The position numbers and the translations under genes are program-made. From a virus, in the IMG/VR virus record IMGVR_UViG_3300020215_000021, positions 1-44,263 of that record: 44,263 nucleotides of DNA; one strand, given 5' to 3'. This document shows, piece after piece, positions 1 to 30,029 of the stretch. The notes under the pieces were generated by a model, which worked only from the letters and a program-made list of their open reading frames with translations, was not told the DNA's origin and did not search any database. Numbering within the stretch: the stretch's first letter is position 1; the number at the start of each line of letters is the position of its first letter.

Positions 1-127
1 GGCGTAGGGCATCACGAAGCGGTTTGCCATGTGGTGTCCTCGAAATGAGAAAGGGCGGCCCGTGGTGGACCGCCCTGTGGCGCGAATGTGATGAGCCGGA
101 CTCGACTCCCGGCGAAAAATCAGCGAC
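1..127. repeat. Terminal direct repeat, copy 1 (identical to 44137..44263)
   Basis: Base-by-base identity from ggcgtagggcatcacgaagcgg to aaaaatcagcgac. It contains the first 30 nt of the tail-fibre CDS. Confidence 0.95.
52..76 (-). terminator. GC-rich hairpin with a U-rich tail on the minus strand, just upstream of the tail-fibre start (possible attenuator/terminator)
   Basis: AGGGCGG (52..58) pairs with CCGCCCT (70..76). The minus-strand read continues TTTCTCATTTCG, then the SD GAGGA and the ATG at 30 (=44166). A duplicate copy lies at 44188..44212. Confidence 0.35.
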
Positions 128-172
128 CGTTTCCCCACCGATTTGCACGCGGGATGGTGGTAGGGTCGGACG

Positions 173-1201
173 ATGAGACGCTTAGCTATGGGCGCCCTGT
201 GCGCCTGCCTCGCGACTTCCGCCCATGCCGGGGACCTGAACCAGCGGTTCTCCATCGGCGGCTGGACCGGCAATGCCTACGCCAGCAATACCACTGGCGC
301 GTTCACTCACTGCGGAATGTGGGCCACGTACAAGAGCGGTATAACGCTGCACTTCGCTGTGCGGCAGGATTTCTCGTGGGCTGTTGGCCTTGTTAACGAA
401 GCGTGGAAATTGCCGAAAGGCAACCGCTATCCCGTACGTTACTTTATTGACCGCAACGCAATCAGGAACGGAGAGGCGGCGGTCAATCAAGATAGCCTCG
501 CCTTGATTGAGATGCCGGATGATAGCGACTTGTTTCGGCAGTTTCAGAATGGGCGGCAGCTCACAATCCTGGCGAATGGACAGGAGTTCAACTTCGACCT
601 GGACGGTACAAGCGGCGCGCTTGGTCATTTGATCGACTGCGTCAACCTGAACAGGAAGGGGGCCTCCAGCTCGAACCCGTTTGCCGCAAGCCAGCCGGGG
701 CTCATTCCCGTTCCGCCGCCACCGCCTCCGGCGCCCCCAGCCACACAGGCAGAGACCATGACGCTCGCGGCGAACCTCATATCGCTCGGTGCCCTGCCGA
801 GCATGCTGTTCTTTGCCCCCAACGAGATACCCGACCTACTCAGGAAGTACGACGTGGCGATGCGGAATGACCGGGCCATCCTGGGCATCCGAGCCGTCCT
901 GAGCCCCAACCGCGCGAACCAAGACCACGCCAACTACTTGGCGGCCGGCTCTGCGAGCGACTGCGTCGGCGGCCAGTTCGCGACCCAGCCGCTCCCGGAG
1001 CCCGGCACGCCCACGCTTGGGAGGGCTGCCAGCGTGTGCAAGCTCTCGGACACGACCGTACACCTCCGGTACACCGTCGTGTCGCGCAAAGCTGGCGGGG
1101 TGTTCGAGTTCGTCCTCATGACGGTGAAGGACCAGTCGGATATCGACGCGGTCGAGGAGCCGCTGCTGACGGCCTTGCGCGCGGCGGTGAAGAGTGACTG
1201 A
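173..1201 (+). CDS. Secreted two-domain protein of unknown function (moron)
   Basis: 342-aa ORF. It has a signal-peptide-like N-terminus (MRRLAMGALCACLATSAHA/GD) and a Pro-rich linker (IPVPPPPPPAPPA) between two ~150-aa parts. It lies on the opposite strand to the flanking virion genes. The 5' half has visibly lower GC. Confidence 0.7.
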   Translation: MRRLAMGALCACLATSAHAGDLNQRFSIGGWTGNAYASNTTGAFTHCGMWATYKSGITLHFAVRQDFSWAVGLVNEAWKLPKGNRYPVRYFIDRNAIRNGEAAVNQDSLALIEMPDDSDLFRQFQNGRQLTILANGQEFNFDLDGTSGALGHLIDCVNLNRKGASSSNPFAASQPGLIPVPPPPPPAPPATQAETMTLAANLISLGALPSMLFFAPNEIPDLLRKYDVAMRNDRAILGIRAVLSPNRANQDHANYLAAGSASDCVGGQFATQPLPEPGTPTLGRAASVCKLSDTTVHLRYTVVSRKAGGVFEFVLMTVKDQSDIDAVEEPLLTALRAAVKSD

Positions 1202-1406
1202 GCCCCGCTACACCTTGAACCTCACGCCCAAGCCGGCCTGGTGGCGCAAGCCACTGGCGGTCCTGGCGGCCGGGAGTTTCATGATCGCCGTCGCCGTGAC
1301 AGTGCGGCTCGTCCCGATTGGCTATACCGCCGCCTTCCTGCTTGGCTGCTTCTGGATGTGCCTGCTGCACCGCATCTACTACGGCCACTGGCCCGATTAC
1401 CGCTAG
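1194..1406 (+). CDS. Small membrane protein (two hydrophobic helices)
   Basis: 70 aa. The GTG start overlaps the upstream stop (GTGA). Hydrophobic stretches are LAVLAAGSFMIAVAVTV and AAFLLGCFWMCLL. Wobble GC is very high. Its stop overlaps the stop of the convergent gene at CTAG 1403..1406. Confidence 0.55.
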   Translation: MTEPRYTLNLTPKPAWWRKPLAVLAAGSFMIAVAVTVRLVPIGYTAAFLLGCFWMCLLHRIYYGHWPDYR

Positions 1407-3631
1407 TCCTGCCCAGCATTGATCGCCGCGGCGCCGGTCGACCCGATGAGGCCGGGCGGCAGCTCCTTGAGGGCGACTTCCCCGGAGGTCGCGCCCACCG
1501 CCTTGACCCCGTAGCCGACGTTCCCCAGGACCGGCATAGCGGCCAGCAGGGCCACCCGCGCCTTCTCTCCCAGGAACGAGGATTTCATCAGGCGCTGCCC
1601 CAGGTTCGCCAGAGCCGGCGTGGTGTTGGAGAAGTTTGCGCCCCCCTTGGTCACGGTGGTGGTGCGGATCGCCGCCTGCTTCAGCAGGTCCAGGGTCTTC
1701 AGCTCCTCCGGCGAGAAGAGCGTCTTCATGATCTGCGGGTTGCGCTCCATCGCCGTGTCGAGCGCGTTGGCGAACTTGGCGCCGGAGAACTCCCGCCGGC
1801 CGGCGTCACGCACATAGGGTCCTTCCGCCGCGCGGGCGAGGCGCATGAAGGCTTCCTCCCGGAGGGCGTTCCATTCGACGCTGCTTTCCCCAACGATCTG
1901 CCGGACGCGCTTCAGGTCGCGGGCGAGGTTCGGCTTGTTGACGAACCCGGTGTCCGCCAGGCCGAAGATGTAGTTCGACACCTGCTCCGGCGGCACCTTG
2001 AAGACAGTCGACCCCGAGCGCTGCTCCTTCTCCAGGATGTCCTGAACGAGATCGTTTCCCTCGAACAGTTTCCCGTACTGGCGCCGCTTCCGGATTGCGG
2101 TCTTCCACGCGTTGATGGCGTTCTGGTCGCCGGACATCAGGCCTTCCTTGGCGATTGCCGGGAGCACTTCGTCGAAGCGCCTCACCATGGCTCGCAGGGC
2201 TGACGCATCCGTCCTGTCGGCCGCCTCGCTGGCAAGGGTGGTGGTCTGCCGCCTCCAGTCGAACAGCGCGGATACCAAGACAGAGCTGTCCGCACTGTTC
2301 GTCAGCTTGTCCAGCTCGGCAAGCTGCCCCTGGGCCTTCGGGGAATGGGCAATGCGGTCCCGCACTTCCTGCTCCCCGCCGATCATGAAGCGGAGCCCCT
2401 GCGCGTCGGTCAGCGGAATGCCGGCCTTCGTCTCGCGCGCCGCGTCGTAGGCCTTGTCGACAATGGCGTTGCCGGACACCGCGCGGGTGTTGAGCGCGTC
2501 CTGAAGGATGGCGCCGGCCTGGTTCGGGGCGGAGGTGACCGGGTAGCCCTTGGTCAGCCCCGCCTTCATCGCATCCACATTGGCCCAGAGCGCGTCCTGT
2601 TGCTCCTGGCGCTTGGTCCGCAGGATGCTTTCCGGGACCTTGCCATAGGCCCCCTTTTCCGCCAGGTCCTCAAACATCTGGTCGGAGGCGCGGCGGGTGA
2701 TGTCGCCCTTGGTCAGGGGGACCTCAACGGGGAGCGACTTTCCCACCGCCGCCACGGCGGCGTCGGCCGGGTTGGCGGCGCCCTTGGCGAGCTTGGTGAA
2801 CTGCCGCAGGTAGTCGTCCGTGACCTGGGATGGGTCGAGGCCGGCCTGTTGCAGGGTGAACTTTCCCGCCTCGGTCAGGGTGCCGGTCGCCGGATCGAAG
2901 AGCTTCCTGTCCGACGCGATCTGCCGGAACAGAGCAGACGCGGCCGGCGCCAGCATCTCGGAGCCCCCGGCGAACACGGCGTTCCCGACCGCATTGGCTG
3001 GGCTGATGCCTTGCTCTGAGCCCGCGGCTCCGGCCGCCACGTCCTGGGCCACTGACCCGGCGGCACCGCCCGCCCCCACGCCCAGCGCCCGCAGGCCCAG
3101 ATTGAGCCCCTTCGTGAGGGCGCCGCCCACCATGCCGAACGGCGCCGTGATGGCGACGTTGGCGCCGAAGTTGTCCACGTCCTGCCCGGAGAACCCAGGG
3201 CGGTTCAGGTAGAACTTCTGCCCCTCCATCTCGGCAATGGTGTTGCCGAACTTGTCCTTGGACAGCACCGCATCGGGGAACGCCTTCTTGAAGATGTCCG
3301 CCTGCCCCTCATCGGTCTGGGCCAGGGCCATCTTGGCGCCGATCTCCCCGAAGCCGGGGATGAACCGGCCCGGCAGTTCGGGATAGTCGAACTCCCGCCG
3401 GCCGTCCCCGGTCACGAAGTCCTTCACGGCGCCAGCGCCCGAGGCGATGGCGCCGCCGGCCGCGGACAGGAAGTCGCCGGCCGCGTTGCCGCTGGCGGGC
3501 CGCGTCTCGGGTTCCGGCTGGGGCGCCCTGGGGCCGTTCAGCACGAGGTCGGCATAGTCCGGTGCCGGAGCGCGCTTCGGCTCGTCGTCCTTGTCCCGGC
3601 CGCCCAGGACCATGTCGGCGTAGTCGACCAT
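1403..3631 (-). CDS. Large internal virion / DNA-ejection protein (742 aa)
   Basis: The ATG at 3631 lies 1 nt after the stop of the upstream gene; the ORF-track start at 3727 would overlap it. This is the last of three large genes after the nozzle gene. The sequence is Ala/Gly-rich and I recognised no enzymatic motif. Confidence 0.65.
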   Translation of the reverse strand: MVDYADMVLGGRDKDDEPKRAPAPDYADLVLNGPRAPQPEPETRPASGNAAGDFLSAAGGAIASGAGAVKDFVTGDGRREFDYPELPGRFIPGFGEIGAKMALAQTDEGQADIFKKAFPDAVLSKDKFGNTIAEMEGQKFYLNRPGFSGQDVDNFGANVAITAPFGMVGGALTKGLNLGLRALGVGAGGAAGSVAQDVAAGAAGSEQGISPANAVGNAVFAGGSEMLAPAASALFRQIASDRKLFDPATGTLTEAGKFTLQQAGLDPSQVTDDYLRQFTKLAKGAANPADAAVAAVGKSLPVEVPLTKGDITRRASDQMFEDLAEKGAYGKVPESILRTKRQEQQDALWANVDAMKAGLTKGYPVTSAPNQAGAILQDALNTRAVSGNAIVDKAYDAARETKAGIPLTDAQGLRFMIGGEQEVRDRIAHSPKAQGQLAELDKLTNSADSSVLVSALFDWRRQTTTLASEAADRTDASALRAMVRRFDEVLPAIAKEGLMSGDQNAINAWKTAIRKRRQYGKLFEGNDLVQDILEKEQRSGSTVFKVPPEQVSNYIFGLADTGFVNKPNLARDLKRVRQIVGESSVEWNALREEAFMRLARAAEGPYVRDAGRREFSGAKFANALDTAMERNPQIMKTLFSPEELKTLDLLKQAAIRTTTVTKGGANFSNTTPALANLGQRLMKSSFLGEKARVALLAAMPVLGNVGYGVKAVGATSGEVALKELPPGLIGSTGAAAINAGQD

Positions 3632-3632
3632 G

Positions 3633-4943
3633 TCAGACCCCGAACTCTTCGGTGAGGCGCAGGCGCACGGCTTCCTGGATCTCCGCATCCTGCGCCTGGG
3701 GGTTCGCCCTGCGCAGGTCCGCATCAAGCTCGTTGCCGCGCTTGCGGATGATGTCCGTCATGCCGTCCAGGCTGATCCCGCCGAAGTTCGCCTTGTCCAA
3801 GCCGTTCTGGCGGATGAACCGCAGGCGGGCGTTGGCGAGCTTGATGGCCCGCTCAGTCGCTTCGACCTTGGACATGAACTTGGTCGGCCCGTCGTTGCCG
3901 GGATCGCCGATGGCGGTCAGCAGGCGCTCGGCTTCCTGCGGGGTGACGGCGGCGCCGCTCATGGCCTTCAGGGTCTGGGTCAGCTCGTTCGCGGCGTCGG
4001 AGCGGAACTGCGAGTAGGCCGTGAGTTCCGCTTGACGCTCCGGGGTGAGCTTGCCCCCAAGCCGCTCCTGCCAGTCCGCCGCGCCCATGTCGAGCTGCGT
4101 GCCGAGCTGGAGGTATTCAGGCTTGAACTTCCCCTTCAGCGACTTGACCCGGTCGAGGCGGAGGGCGTTGTCCTTGAGCTGGGTGTCGATCTCGCTGGCG
4201 GTCGGCTTGGCGAGCCCCGCGCCTACGGGCCCGTCGCTCACCACGAACCCGCCCTTCCCGTCGCTCTCCACCCGCATCTGGCGCGGGCCGGCCGCCGGCA
4301 GGCCAGGGCGCTCCGGCTGCATCGAGAAGCCGGTCGGGCTGTTCTGGTCGGGGGCCGCCACGAGGTTCGGGTCCTTCGGCGCGGTGTACAGCGGCTTGAC
4401 GCTCTCGCCCTGGACGCGAACCACCTGGTTGCCGACTCCCATCGTCTTCGGTGCCGGCGCCACGCGGTCCAGCAGGTCTTTGGTTTCCAGGGCTTCGGCG
4501 AGCTGCTGCTGCACGAAATTGGGATCGTAGTCCTCCGGCACGTTGTCGACAGGCAAGCCCATCTCCCTGGCCTTCAGGCGCGCCGCCCTGTACGCCAGGG
4601 GTCGCCCCGCCTCCGGCAGCGCCTCGACGCTCCCCAGCAGCCGGGCCGTCGTCTCGGAGATGTACTTCAGCTTCTCCCGCTGCTCCTTGCTGGCCTTGGA
4701 CAGCACGTCGAGCGCCTGTCCGGCCCGCTCGGGGTCAGCGACCGCCATGGCGCGGATGGCATCTTGGTCGCCCTCCATGACGCCGGGCATCAGGGCGGCA
4801 AGCTGGTTCTCCCGCTTGGCCTTTCGCTCCGTCTCCGCCGTGCGCGCACGGAGGTATTCGTTCTGTAGCCGGTTGCTCTCGATTGCTGACCCCGTCTGGT
4901 AGATGTCGCGCAGGTCGAGCATGGCAAGCTGATTGGTCGTCAT
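3633..4943 (-). CDS. Internal virion / ejection protein (436 aa)
   Basis: The ATG at 4943 overlaps the upstream stop (ATGA). The product is charged and helical (MTTNQLAMLDLRDIYQ...). The call rests on its position in the ejection-protein block. Confidence 0.6.
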   Translation of the reverse strand: MTTNQLAMLDLRDIYQTGSAIESNRLQNEYLRARTAETERKAKRENQLAALMPGVMEGDQDAIRAMAVADPERAGQALDVLSKASKEQREKLKYISETTARLLGSVEALPEAGRPLAYRAARLKAREMGLPVDNVPEDYDPNFVQQQLAEALETKDLLDRVAPAPKTMGVGNQVVRVQGESVKPLYTAPKDPNLVAAPDQNSPTGFSMQPERPGLPAAGPRQMRVESDGKGGFVVSDGPVGAGLAKPTASEIDTQLKDNALRLDRVKSLKGKFKPEYLQLGTQLDMGAADWQERLGGKLTPERQAELTAYSQFRSDAANELTQTLKAMSGAAVTPQEAERLLTAIGDPGNDGPTKFMSKVEATERAIKLANARLRFIRQNGLDKANFGGISLDGMTDIIRKRGNELDADLRRANPQAQDAEIQEAVRLRLTEEFGV

Positions 4944-12424: not shown

Positions 12425-12489
12425 GGTGATGGTCCTTCATGCTGAGAGCGCCGAGAGGCGCGGGGGGTGACCCCGCGCTCCCAGGCATG

Positions 12490-12512
12490 AAAAAAGCCGC
12501 CCTGAAGGCGGC
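12490..12512 (-). terminator. Rho-independent terminator immediately after the major capsid gene
   Basis: The minus strand reads GCCGCC-TTCAG-GGCGGC followed by TTTTTT. It lies 26 nt after the capsid stop at 12538. A second 8-bp GC hairpin (GCGCGGGG/CCCCGCGC) sits at 12458..12478. Confidence 0.8.
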
Positions 12513-12537
12513 CGGTCGGAGGTGATGCGCCCCGGGC

Positions 12538-15380: not shown

Positions 15381-15806
15381 TCAGGCGCGAATGATCGCGC
15401 AGATGTCCTTGTCGACGCAGAGCCGGTACAGGTCGGAAATGTCCCCGGCCTTCGGGGGCTGGCCGCTGTACTTGCTGACGATGACCCGGTCGCCGGGTTG
15501 GGGAATGCTGCCCTTCCAGTCCTCAAAGGCGTTCCCGCCCACGGCAATGAGCGTGGCGTACGTTTCCGCAGCCTGCTGACGCTCCTTGGCCTGTTCCGGG
15601 ATGTAGATGGAGCCCCGCTTCTCCTCGACGGGATCGAGGCGAACGAGACACTTGTATTCGACCGGCACCAGGCCGCTCGTGTTAAGCGGCTTGGGCTCGA
15701 CCGCCGTGGGTCGGCTGGACCACATGGCCTCGGAGTCCGCCAGTTCGCGGCGGATGCGCTCCCGCTGCTCAAAGGTCAGGGGTTCATTCGTCTTCTGCTC
15801 GTCCAT
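15381..15806 (-). CDS. GroES (Cpn10)-like co-chaperonin domain protein
   Basis: The C-terminal ~95 aa read like GroES: VPVEYKCLVRLDPVEEKRGSIYIPEQAKERQQ...ATLIAVGGNAF...PGDRVIVSKYSG...DKDICAIIRA. An N-terminal extension of ~45 aa precedes this. Confidence 0.6.
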   Translation of the reverse strand: MDEQKTNEPLTFEQRERIRRELADSEAMWSSRPTAVEPKPLNTSGLVPVEYKCLVRLDPVEEKRGSIYIPEQAKERQQAAETYATLIAVGGNAFEDWKGSIPQPGDRVIVSKYSGQPPKAGDISDLYRLCVDKDICAIIRA

Positions 15807-20609: not shown

Positions 20610-20918
20610 TTAGGCCGCCTTGGCGCGGGTCATGCGGGCTTCGGCCAGCAGGAAGCCGAAGAGAGGCCACAGGTGCCGGAAGGCGTTGTCGTAGGCGATC
20701 TTCTGGCCGATCTCGCGGTTGAAGTTCGCCGGGTCCACGCAGGCGCTCTCGCCACGGACGCTGAAGCCGTTGTCCAGGGTGATGGAGCAGATCGTCACCG
20801 TGGTCTGCGGCAGGACCGTGTAGTCCACGTCGGTGATGCGGGACTTGATGTAGTCCGCGGTCACCTTCTCCCCCGGCATGGCGGCGATGGCGGCCTCAAG
20901 CTGGTCGTTGGTCAGCAT
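20610..20918 (-). CDS. N4 gp49 / Sf6 gp66-family phage protein
   Basis: The ATG at 20918 has an SD (AAGGA). TTVTICSITLDNGFSVRGESACVDPANFNREIGQKIAYDNAFRHLWPLFGFLLAE matches my memory of that family. Confidence 0.75.
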   Translation of the reverse strand: MLTNDQLEAAIAAMPGEKVTADYIKSRITDVDYTVLPQTTVTICSITLDNGFSVRGESACVDPANFNREIGQKIAYDNAFRHLWPLFGFLLAEARMTRAKAA

Positions 20919-20975
20919 GGCGATGTCCTTTCGGTGTGGATGACCCGGCTTCGAGCCGTGGTCTGGAACGACGAA

Positions 20976-21005
20976 GCCGCCCACGATCACGGGGACCGGG
21001 GCGGC
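20976..21005 (-). other. Hairpin near the 3' end of the late leader (weak terminator candidate)
   Basis: The minus strand reads GCCGCCC-N16-GGGCGGC, followed by TTCGTCGTT. Confidence 0.3.
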
Positions 21006-21247
21006 GCCAACTGCAGCAAGCTAAGTGTTTGATCTGCTTGTCGATCGACGCCCTACTCCGGAGATTTCCCGGAGTTTACTGCAGGGCTCAAATCGGGACG
21101 TTGCTGGCCGCCGGTACCGGCTGTTCTGGCGCAGGGCCGCCGCAGCGTCGTCTCGGAAATCTGGGCACCCGTGTCCGAAGCTTCGGGGCCGGTGGCGGGT
21201 GAAGACAGCCAGGGGATCAGCCCGGCACTTCGGACCCGCAGCACTAT

Positions 21248-21257
21248 GGCTACCGCA
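21248..21257 (-). promoter_or_regulatory. ops-like element TGCGGTAGCC in the late leader
   Basis: 7 of 8 match to the E. coli ops core GGCGGTAG. It lies about 40 nt downstream of the predicted transcription start. Confidence 0.35.
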
Positions 21258-21300
21258 GGGCGTGGTGACCGCCGGAGCGTCGCCAAACCCTGCTGCCCAT

Positions 21301-21329
21301 TGTATAACACAATCGGTAGTGGGCTTCAA
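21301..21329 (-). promoter_or_regulatory. Candidate late promoter (sigma70-like)
   Basis: The minus strand reads TTGAAG, a 17-nt spacer, then TATACA, with TGT immediately upstream of the -10. It starts 19 nt after the NusG-like stop. Confidence 0.45.
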
Positions 21330-21347
21330 CGGAAAGCATCACCCGAT

Positions 21348-21959
21348 CTAGGCAGCTAGTTCGGGCTCCTCTTCCACGTCGTCCAGCCCCAGGGTTACCT
21401 CCGTCTCCCTCCCGAACAGGGACAAGAGGACGGTGACGCGGGCGTTGTCGCAGCTCTTGAACAGGCCGGGCCAGCGGGCGAACACCCCGTCCCGGATGCG
21501 GAGCTTGGTGCGGCCGGGCTTCCAGGCGGCGCCGACGCGTTCCGGGATCAGGGACAGCGCCCCGCCGTCGCGCTGGCAGCGGTCGTGGATGACCCGGAGG
21601 ATGCCGGGCTGGATCGTGAGGGGGCGGTTGGCCTTGTCCCGCAGGACGAACGACACGCCGGGCGTGTTGCAGATCGGCAGGAACGCCTGGCCCTGGGCGA
21701 TGCCGACGAACAGGTAGCGGGGGAACAGGGGACGGATCACCTCCTCCACCTTGCCGGCGTGCTTGCGACGCAGGAGGCAGAGCGGAACGAACACCCGATA
21801 GCCTTGCTCCTCCAGCCGTGCCGCGGCGTAGGCCTCCCCATTCACCTTGGAGACGACGACGCACCAGTCCCGGCCGGTGAAGTCGTGGCCGGGCTGCATG
21901 GCCGGCGGGCGGCTTGCCGTGATGCGGAGACCGGGGCCGGTGATGGTGCGCTTGCTCAT
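21348..21959 (-). CDS. NusG/RfaH-family transcription antitermination-like protein
   Basis: 203 aa. NGN-like segment: WCVVVSKVNGEAYAAARLEEQGYRVFVPLCLLRRKHAGKVEEVIRPLFPRYLFV. KOW-like segment: KPGRTKLRIRDGVFARWPGLFKSCDNARVTVLLSLFGRETEVTL. Confidence 0.75.
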   Translation of the reverse strand: MSKRTITGPGLRITASRPPAMQPGHDFTGRDWCVVVSKVNGEAYAAARLEEQGYRVFVPLCLLRRKHAGKVEEVIRPLFPRYLFVGIAQGQAFLPICNTPGVSFVLRDKANRPLTIQPGILRVIHDRCQRDGGALSLIPERVGAAWKPGRTKLRIRDGVFARWPGLFKSCDNARVTVLLSLFGRETEVTLGLDDVEEEPELAA

Positions 21960-21971
21960 GCTGCCCTCTCC

Positions 21972-22295
21972 TCAGGTGATCTTGCCGTGGTGGGGGATGG
22001 TGGTGGTGTTGGCGAGAGCCTTCCGCAGCCGCTCAATCTCCTCCGCAGCGGCCAGCAACGTCATGTCGCCGATGGGGATTATCCCGCCGCGGGCAGCCTT
22101 GGCCCGGAGGCGCGCGGCGATGTCTTCACGCGCATTGGCCGGGCAAGCGGGTATCGCGCTGATCTGGTGTGAGACAGGGGAAGCGCGATGCGGGGTCTCT
22201 GAACACAAATGACTGATTTCCTCCGACACGGATTCACCCCCTAAGCCGTTGCCGCGACTGCCAATTCCACTGATTTCCTCTCCGTGGATTCGCAT
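21972..22295 (-). CDS. Hypothetical protein (107 aa) with a repetitive, low-GC3 N-terminus
   Basis: A strong SD (GGAAGGAG) lies 8 nt upstream of the ATG at 22295, which is 3 nt after the upstream stop. In-frame repeats GEEISG / SEEISH / SHQISA occur at 57- and 54-nt spacing. Confidence 0.55.
   Translation of the reverse strand: MRIHGEEISGIGSRGNGLGGESVSEEISHLCSETPHRASPVSHQISAIPACPANAREDIAARLRAKAARGGIIPIGDMTLLAAAEEIERLRKALANTTTIPHHGKIT
22142..22167 (-). repeat. 26-bp perfect repeat, copy A (inverted relative to 40398..40423)
   Basis: The minus strand reads CCAGATCAGCGCGATACCCGCTTGCC, identical to the plus strand at 40398..40423. Confidence 0.95.
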
Positions 22296-29870: not shown

Positions 29871-30029
29871 CGCCACCGCTCCATCTGGTGATTCGGTCCT
29901 GCGGTAGCCCCTCCCCGCTCCCGGCTTAACACCGGCAGCGTACCCCGAGGGGTATGTTAGGCCCGCCTCATATGGCTCGCAACTGTATGTGGTTGCCAAT
30001 GAAATGCTCGCAATTTCAAGCTTATCGCC

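Follow-up and report, generated by a model that had tools for sequence, protein, structure and literature searches.

The window analyzed here is a whole 44,263-nucleotide (nt) stretch of viral DNA, recorded in IMG/VR as IMGVR_UViG_3300020215_000021. On its minus strand, the run of early genes ends with a gene for a paralog of the transcription factor NusG that is most similar to RfaH, and this gene is followed by a promoter-like site, an RNA hairpin, an element matching ops (the loading site of RfaH), a leader, and a terminator, behind which the late genes begin. We propose that these parts make up a late-gene switch comparable to Q/PR'/tR' of phage lambda, built from an RfaH-like paralog encoded in cis, and put the probability of this reading at roughly 0.7. 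An earlier examination of the same DNA (hereafter the original prediction) had suggested that the phage places a specialised NusG paralog of its own and a predicted ops-like loading site in front of its late operon, and both the profile matches and the conservation of ops described below bear this core idea out. Late control is understood in molecular detail in few phage types, namely lambda Q, Q21, Q82, P2/P4 Ogr-Delta, and T4, and we know of no account of it for most phages of Alphaproteobacteria. If the proposed switch is true, the problem that Q solves would have a third protein solution, unrelated to the others and drawn from the only universally conserved transcription factor fold.

The RfaH-like protein

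The 203-aa product of the last early gene had been described as carrying NGN-like and KOW-like segments, and Pfam, NCBIfam, the profile comparison with PDB, and the structure model now agree on this point; matches to NGN/KOW profiles, on which the original prediction had staked itself, were found. The NGN domain (Pfam PF02357) was detected at residues 31-118 with a score of 45.1 bits against a cut-off of 22.2 and an E-value of 1.5e-11. The NCBIfam models of RfaH, NusG, UpxY, and LoaP all aligned to the protein over its full length including the KOW part, those of RfaH and NusG reaching residue 196. RfaH scored highest (67.7 bits), followed by UpxY (46.6), NusG (40.4), and LoaP (38.4), albeit every score was below the curated cut-off. 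The shortfall was large for the two RfaH equivalog models (67.7 vs. 144.5 bits for TIGR01955 and 40.5 vs. 124 bits for NF006534), as well as for LoaP (NF033641; 38.4 vs. 125 bits) and UpxY (NF033644; 46.6 vs. 100 bits). PHROG 6386, labeled 'transcription antiterminator', matched the protein with an E-value of 3e-20.

A profile of the protein family compared with PDB retrieved Escherichia coli RfaH structures (7.9e-25) ahead of NusG (5e-22), with the KOW domains of both covered. The AlphaFold2 model of the window protein, with a predicted local distance difference test (pLDDT) score of 89, comprised an NGN domain and a beta-barrel KOW domain, the strands at residues 152-197 having pLDDT above 90, and its NGN domain superposed on that of RfaH (PDB 5ond) with a root-mean-square deviation of 1.6 Å. 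In the best model, the single one inspected from a method that can miss alternative folds, the C-terminal domain took the form of a beta-barrel and not the alpha-helical autoinhibited form. The pairwise identity to E. coli RfaH was 30%. No homology to the Q protein families was found, and the Pfam and PHROG matches were to NusG-type families only. Altogether, we regard the protein, from profile and structure comparisons, as a specialised NusG paralog of the RfaH type but not as a curated RfaH equivalog.

The ops element and the hairpin that adjoins it

E. coli RfaH works with ops (GGCGGTAGCGTG) in the leaders of long, horizontally acquired operons. The defining feature of such targets, an ops core GGCGGTAG in the transcribed leader, is represented in the window by TGCGGTAGCC at 21257..21248, and the paralog gene ends 91 nt upstream of it. 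The relatives of the paralog were collected by a search anchored on the protein, with an alignment of six sequences, which added 160 loci to the first ones (80 from genomes and 80 from viral contigs); 163 loci (numbers preceded by L) entered the count. The genome loci were mostly of Alphaproteobacteria, e.g., Azospirillum, Bradyrhizobium, and Rhodospirillales. GCGGTAG was found on the sense strand within 200 nt past the paralog stop codon in 63 of the 163 loci and on the antisense strand in one, and the next two 200-nt bins downstream contained 0 and 1. The figure of 63 is a lower bound, as the motif of L104 lies inside the 3' end of the open reading frame (ORF) and other clades carry GCGTTAGC or GCGGCAGC. 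The motif pointed out by the original prediction is thus present, its placement after homologous genes is non-random, and it is conserved in relatives, in phages as well as in polysaccharide loci on chromosomes.

The consensus of the family, TGCGGTAGC(G/A/T)TG, corresponds to E. coli ops with T in place of G1, and TGCGGTAGCGTG is the same as ops except at G1. The closest distinct relative, P0002 (L007), shares 39% protein identity with the window protein and belongs to a phage with a lambda-type gpA terminase; 15 nt, CTGCGGTAGCCATAG, are identical downstream in the window and L007, and are followed by the terminator in L007. The 7-mer by itself was not significant in the window (9 matches vs. 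4.4 expected), and none of the 96 exact matches to the 15-mer in IMG/VR, a chance level for this database, adjoined a NusG-like gene. The count of a motif alone is therefore uninformative and anchoring on the protein is needed. Judged from its anchored conservation, we regard TGCGGTAGC(C) at 21257..21248 as a genuine ops element. A second exact TGCGGTAGC lies at 29900..29908 on the plus strand, in a regulatory gap between an HTH_31 repressor-like gene and a P63C gene, and faces plus-strand genes. This copy is probably a chance match, because no hairpin was found before it, and was rejected as an ops site. As the sole other TGCGGTAGC in the window is hairpin-less, action in trans on several distant operons, a trait of RfaH, was not recognized in this stretch.

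A stem-loop immediately upstream of ops, absent from the elements listed in the original prediction, appeared to be the second part of the conserved signal. The window hairpin, folded individually, has a free energy of -24.7 kcal/mol and a z-score of -3.53. Among 49 non-redundant loci, the 38 nt upstream of GCGGTAG showed a mean z of -2.4 with 67% of the loci below -2, and a control window 30 nt downstream averaged z = 0.0, only 4% lying below -2. In 38 of the 49 loci, the helix ended on its 3' side at 0 to +2 relative to GCGGTAG, and in nearly every locus the stem-loop ended at the base before the motif or one to two bases inside it. The pair at position -1 was G-C in 18 loci and C-G in another 18. 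When 50 distinct chromosomal sites were aligned with a covariance model, an alignment that was fitted to the structure and is biased towards it, 85.4% of the cells were paired as opposed to 74.6% after shuffling (none of 500 shuffles was as high) and 37-47% in controls with slid partners, and compensatory changes were found in 9 of the 13 pairs. The phage hairpins have unrelated stem sequences and equal placement. MAFFT combined with RNAalifold predicted only the mini-stem of ops in this region, in which loop lengths differ, and per-sequence folding statistics and the covariance-model alignment were used instead. A model built from chromosomal seeds with GGGTG/CACCC stems (R1) was too sequence-specific to detect the phage hairpins. 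By these statistics, we consider that a covarying RNA hairpin adjoins ops. The hairpin ends about 10 nt before the equivalent of U11 in ops, and such spacing resembles that of hairpin-stabilised pauses, e.g., the his pause. The likeness in spacing suggests a role of the hairpin in stabilising the pause at ops or in preventing backtracking there, and the hairpin thus probably prolongs the loading window.

The variants of ops differ at positions 5 and 6 and retain the hairpin: a large set of viral contigs has GCGTTAGC, and several genomes have GCGGCAGC (Table 1). In E. coli ops, the bases at positions 5 and 6 flip out and are read on DNA by RfaH. As the changes fall on these positions, they suggest that the specificity of the protein and that of the site co-evolve between clades.

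The same observations bear on whether the paralog may instead be recruited by the nascent RNA, the hairpin and single-stranded GCGGUAGC being bound in a manner similar to LoaP or lambda N/nut, with antitermination arising from the RNA tether. A covarying hairpin next to the motif speaks for selection at the RNA level, because a hairpin of 30-40 nt cannot form inside the transcription bubble; several DNA-contact residues of RfaH are changed in the paralog; and LoaP, a NusG paralog, is reported to bind an RNA hairpin of the leader and to act at the terminators there. The motif is nevertheless identical to the E. coli ops core, an element read on DNA; its bases 3-8 retain the C3:G8 mini-hairpin of ops DNA (predicted G-C and C-G pairs around GGTA); LoaP gave the lowest score of the four paralog models; and the clade variants fall on the bases that RfaH reads on DNA. 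We therefore regard recruitment through RNA as unlikely, albeit the strongest of the competitors to loading at ops DNA.

In chromosomes of Alphaproteobacteria, the hairpin and TGCGGTAGC(G/T)TG were found about 50-90 nt past the paralog stop codon, ahead of polysaccharide-type genes, and the same arrangement was found in some contigs classified as viral. The targets include UDP-N-acetylglucosamine 2-epimerase (L191 and L221) and a protein with a Gfo/Idh/MocA-like N-terminus; polysaccharide genes are the classical target class of RfaH. A distance of 50-90 nt leaves little room for a promoter, and the chromosomal paralog may thus be co-transcribed with its target. In some genomes the hairpin and ops were found 1-3 kb beyond the paralog gene instead of immediately after it, for which action in trans or at a distance would be needed; in three of them (L123, L127, and L141) the motif is GGCGGTAGCGTC, which matches positions 1-11 of E. 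coli ops.

Promoter-like site, leader, and terminators of an exchangeable cassette

The original prediction had placed a promoter between the paralog gene and ops, and its hexamers are present in the window. A TTGACA-like and a TAnnnT-like hexamer recur at a distance of 41-45 nt from GCGGTAG in independent lineages (the window, L104, L105, L184-186, L191, and L193), several of which carry the consensus TTGACA. The predicted transcription start in the window is near 21294, at the foot of the hairpin. The constant spacing in relatives supports this part of the prediction, and the -10 hexamer is imperfect (see below).

A compact intrinsic terminator downstream of ops was found in at least seven phage or prophage lineages including the window. 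In the window, the stem extends to 12 bp by inner pairs, with a 5-nt loop and a free energy of -21.4 kcal/mol. A TTYGTCGTYTC-like tail is common to the terminators of the window, L007, L104, and L184-186, and L105, L197, and the L203 group have other compact terminators after ops. From this recurrence, we regard the hairpin at 21005..20976 as an intrinsic terminator. The order of regulator gene, late promoter, loading site, terminator, and late operon is shared by the window, L007, L104, L105, L184-186, L197, and the L203 group.

The segment between ops and the terminator is particular to the window and its closest kin. The corresponding gap is 15-42 nt in the relatives, in which the segment is missing, and the additional ~245 nt are thus specific to the phage group of the window; all available copies are about 99% identical. 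A coding role was rejected, as a 1-nt indel relative to L004 shifts every candidate ORF out of frame, and Rfam at the gathering threshold gave no match in the leader, only matches at chance level. The segment is thus probably non-coding. The leader had been described as structured and of lower GC content. All the hairpins listed for it, at 21075..21055, 21186..21175, and 21005..20976, are where they had been placed, albeit the fold as a whole is modest (z = -1.9 over 341 nt) and the difference in GC content, in the expected direction, is marginal (63.9% vs. 67.6% for the window). The conserved parts are the hairpin abutting ops, which had been missed, and the terminator, not the ~245 nt between them. 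A terminator and a hairpin claimed further downstream, at 12490..12512 and 52..76, were confirmed as terminator-like sites at 12513..12495 and 76..52 on the minus strand; the former is likely a substrate of processive antitermination.

The block from the paralog gene to the terminator is 99.3% identical to L004 (1298..2344) and L006 (544..1590), which differ from the window in the flanking early and late genes, and the identity ceases 15 nt past the terminator stem. As the identity persists despite the differing flanks, the parts move together between phages, and we regard the block, on this comparison, as one exchangeable cassette. The terminases behind the module are of unrelated types, namely Terminase_6 in the window, Terminase_3/Sf6 in L004, and gpA in L007, L184, and L198; those of L224 and L251 match Terminase_6C. 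By blastn against cultured phages, similarity was found only in the gp49_66 gene, the first of the late genes in the window.

Table 1. Positions of the features in the window and in related loci
Feature	Position	Strand	Remarks
RfaH-like NusG paralog gene	21348..21959	-	203 aa; ends the early gene run; TAG stop
Regions of the paralog	N-terminal 29 residues; ~30-118; ~150-197		Disordered; NGN; beta-barrel KOW (AlphaFold2 and profiles)
Exchangeable cassette	20961..22008	-	1,048 bp; gene, promoter, hairpin, ops, leader, terminator
Promoter-like site	21329..21301	-	TTGAAG-17 nt-TATACA; TGT at 21309..21307 (TG at -15/-14)
-35-like hexamer	21329..21324	-	TTGAAG; begins 19 nt past TAG
-10-like hexamer	21306..21301	-	TATACA
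Hairpin at the predicted 5' end of the late transcript	21293..21255	-	3' arm enters the first two bases of GCGGTAG
ops element	21257..21248	-	TGCGGTAGCC; matches E. coli ops at positions 2-9
Leader segment	21006..21247	-	~245 nt; only in this phage group; contains the next two features
Palindrome	21186..21175	-	CCGAAGCTTCGG; read from sequence
Leader hairpin	21075..21055	-	ACTCCGG-N7-CCGGAGT; read from sequence
Predicted leader intrinsic terminator	20961..21005	-	Stem GCCGCCC-N16-GGGCGGC at 21005..20976; tails TTCGTCGTT / TTCGTCGTTCCAGAC
First late gene, Phage_gp49_66 family	20610..20918	-	Pfam 5.3e-25; AAGGA ribosome-binding site upstream
Internal late-run terminator	12485..12513	-	Directly after the major capsid gene; 8-bp stem with 6 GC pairs; tail TTTTTCATGC
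Terminator-like hairpin	52..76	-	Far end of the minus-strand run; 10-bp stem; tail TTCTCATTTC
ops to terminator stem, L197	+15 nt
ops to terminator stem, L203 group	+19 nt
ops to terminator stem, L007	+32 nt
ops to terminator stem, L184-186	+34 nt
ops to terminator stem, L105	about +40 nt
ops to terminator stem, L104	+42 nt
ops to terminator stem, window	+251 nt
Loci with ops variants	L197 1681..1720; L203-L226 (L203 4633..4672); L152 4527..4565; L164; L174; L202; L256
Chromosomal loci with hairpin and ops past the paralog stop	L107-L118, L128, L129, L142 (Bradyrhizobium); L133; L136-L139; others		About 50-90 nt past the stop
Distant hairpin and ops	L123 7590..7634; L127 7589..7633; L141 7588..7632; L106 6809..6849; L159 5581..5644		1-3 kb downstream of the paralog gene

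The proposed switch, its rivals, and known counterparts

We propose the following course of events. The paralog would be made from the last gene of the early operon, and the promoter just downstream would yield an RNA that opens with the stable hairpin. When the polymerase reaches ops (about +38 to +47), the exposed non-template strand GCGGTAGC would recruit the NGN domain of the paralog as E. coli RfaH is recruited, and the hairpin, placed behind the U11-equivalent with the geometry of a hairpin-stabilised anti-backtracking pause, would probably lengthen the time for loading. Without the paralog, transcripts would end at 21005..20976 and leave a leader RNA of about 330 nt. The polymerase bound by the paralog would resist pausing and termination and pass this terminator, that at 12513..12495, and any Rho-dependent sites, and the read-through would lead to the expression of the packaging, head, tail, and lysis genes, about 20 kb in all.

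Several observations weigh against the proposed switch. The modeled beta-barrel KOW domain gives no sign of autoinhibition in the paralog, and a 2026 preprint reports that monomorphic beta-RfaH homologs adjoin their operons and are ops-independent (PMC13015549). Only three of the eight residues by which E. coli RfaH contacts ops are retained (K10, Q24, and T72); R16 is replaced by Y, H20 by R, R23 by E, T68 by I, and R73 by P, and the HTT motif by FLP, although R23 and R73 are kept in some members of the family. In place of the G10-T11-G12 pause consensus, the phage ops has C-A-T. A strict sigma-70 scan does not report the promoter at 21329..21301, as TATACA lacks the final T. The U-tract of the leader terminator is interrupted, and the phage loci L199, L224, and L251 possess ops with no intrinsic terminator in the following 300 nt.

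Some of these points would fit a paralog that acts in cis only and independently of ops, being monomorphic and loaded co-translationally, so that the late genes are expressed by read-through from the early region, the motif serves chiefly in pausing or mRNA stability, and the promoter is unused. The predicted beta-barrel KOW domain, the gene lying directly upstream of its target, and the preprint on monomorphic homologs agree with this explanation, as do the ops at or within the 3' end of the paralog gene in L104 and L198-L201 and the mere 50-90 nt between the stop codon and ops in chromosomal loci. On the other hand, the ops core is kept exactly among widely diverged loci, as would hardly be expected unless its sequence is recognized specifically; promoter hexamers stand at fixed spacing from ops in phage loci; and the hairpin and ops are 2-3 kb away from the paralog gene in L106, L123, L127, and L141. 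We consider the cis-only explanation improbable. That the arrangement is incidental, the protein being a general elongation or host-takeover factor and the U-tailed hairpin ending early transcription, with an activator-dependent late promoter elsewhere in the 430-nt gap, is more improbable still: the terminator would indeed also halt early read-through and the phage-group-specific ~245 nt could carry other signals, but the order of elements is conserved over lineages with unrelated late genes and the cassette boundary falls exactly after the terminator.

The proposed late switch can be compared with several known systems. With E. coli RfaH/ops it shares the NGN and KOW fold (RfaH being the best match among profiles and in PDB), a long operon with the core GCGGTAGC in its transcribed leader, the polysaccharide targets in the chromosomal relatives, and, as expected, processive resistance to pausing and termination. 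It differs from the E. coli system in that the paralog is cis-encoded just before its target, falls below the TIGR01955 cut-off at 30% identity, has a predicted beta-barrel KOW domain, and has changed five of the eight ops contacts as well as HTT; besides, ops is preceded here by a covarying RNA hairpin and, in the phages, mostly trailed by an intrinsic terminator. The switch resembles lambdoid Q in the gene at the end of the early region and upstream of the late promoter, the promoter-proximal loading site, the single long late operon that opens with packaging genes, the exchangeability of the module between phages, and, as predicted here, a short terminated leader RNA in the absence of the factor. 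There is no homology between the two, the NusG fold standing against the Q folds, and the predicted loading point here is an ops pause about 40-50 nt from the transcript start, whereas Q uses a promoter DNA site and a sigma-dependent pause.

LoaP of Bacillus/Firmicutes, which serves antibiotic gene clusters, is likewise encoded in cis beside its target, and there, too, the leader combines an RNA hairpin with an intrinsic terminator to be overcome. It differs in phylum and targets, its profile gave the lowest score for the window protein, and its signal is RNA, an ops DNA core being undescribed for it. IncX PrfaH/ActX, TraB, Bacteroides UpxY, and monomorphic beta-RfaH are also specialised NusG paralogs on a mobile element or operon adjoining their long target operons. 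IncX PrfaH has an ops-like site downstream of its own promoter (PMC11880322), and there ops precedes prfaH, which is co-transcribed with virB, whereas here the gene precedes promoter and ops. The monomorphic homologs share the beta-barrel C-terminal domain but are reported to be ops-independent, in contrast to the near-invariant ops of the phage paralog clade. The target here, a phage late operon, separates the window paralog from the plasmid and other cis-encoded ones.

The original prediction had called this architecture uncharacterized, which is fair, albeit the components were not unknown: Wang et al. (2020) found 18% of rfaH genes in Alphaproteobacteria and noted rfaH-like genes on prophages (PMC7593976), and PHROG 6386 already bears an antiterminator label. 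A 2024 survey of Helicobacter pylori prophages speculated on a NusG-like regulator. In the literature, of which subscription journals were thinly covered, we found neither a phage late operon switched by an RfaH-like factor nor a covarying hairpin fused to ops. RfaH/ops and prophage rfaH-like genes are thus already known, and what we found no description of is the late-switch architecture in phages and the composite of hairpin and ops. Caulobacter GafZ was considered as a related antiterminator of a gene transfer agent and rejected, as it is no NusG homolog. Stem-loops of JUMPstart leaders were a subject of work in the 1990s.

A wider generalization, which we offer tentatively and at somewhat less than even odds, is that the nascent-RNA hairpin and ops DNA form a composite loading signal that halts the polymerase and loads a non-autoinhibited, cis-encoded RfaH-like factor in phages of Alphaproteobacteria as well as in chromosomal polysaccharide loci. 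In phages, it would then form a portable 'Q-replacement' cassette of 1 kb and be the sole determinant of late expression, its specificity being retuned between clades at ops positions 5 and 6 (GCGGTAGC, GCGTTAGC, and GCGGCAGC). As the same ops core occurs in phage and chromosomal loci, phage and host factors could cross-activate operons; if so, a phage could alter the synthesis of host surface polysaccharides, or host RfaH could leak late genes. One gene, a promoter, ops, and a terminator within 1 kb would constitute a natural minimal RfaH system, which lets one ask how non-metamorphic paralogs stay specific and in which the aid of an RNA hairpin to ops pausing and the co-evolution of ops specificity with the protein are testable. 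The signature of ops, hairpin, and terminator may serve as a marker of late operon starts in metagenomic phage contigs, and synthetic biology in high-GC hosts could use the cassette as a compact part for antitermination.

Outside the loci treated above, a tblastn search of INPHARED retrieved a sole clearly phage homolog of the paralog, annotated as 'hypothetical protein', in Bradyrhizobium phage ppBjS10J-1 (L264; OP596615.1, 29025..29657; 27% identity). GCGGTAG was not found downstream of this gene, and a strong terminator lies about 300 nt past it. The remaining four matches were to unannotated records named as Staphylococcus or Listeria phages, two of them just 1.4 kb long. In the prophage of an Azospirillum metagenome-assembled genome (L104, 4455..4610), the late promoter TTGACC-18-TAACTT, the hairpin, and ops all lie within the 3' part of the paralog coding sequence, and the terminator begins directly past the stop codon, with a gene for a tail-collar protein next. 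At the distal end of the late run on the minus strand of the window, the 'antisense insert' of the original prediction corresponds to a 342-aa ORF at 173..1201 on the plus strand; Pfam gave no match for this ORF or for the neighboring 774-aa ORF (1403..3727, minus strand). Within the late head block, Pfam identified a gene of the Cpn10/GroES family encoding 141 aa (15381..15806, minus strand); it has the putative portal gene on one side and the head genes on the other.

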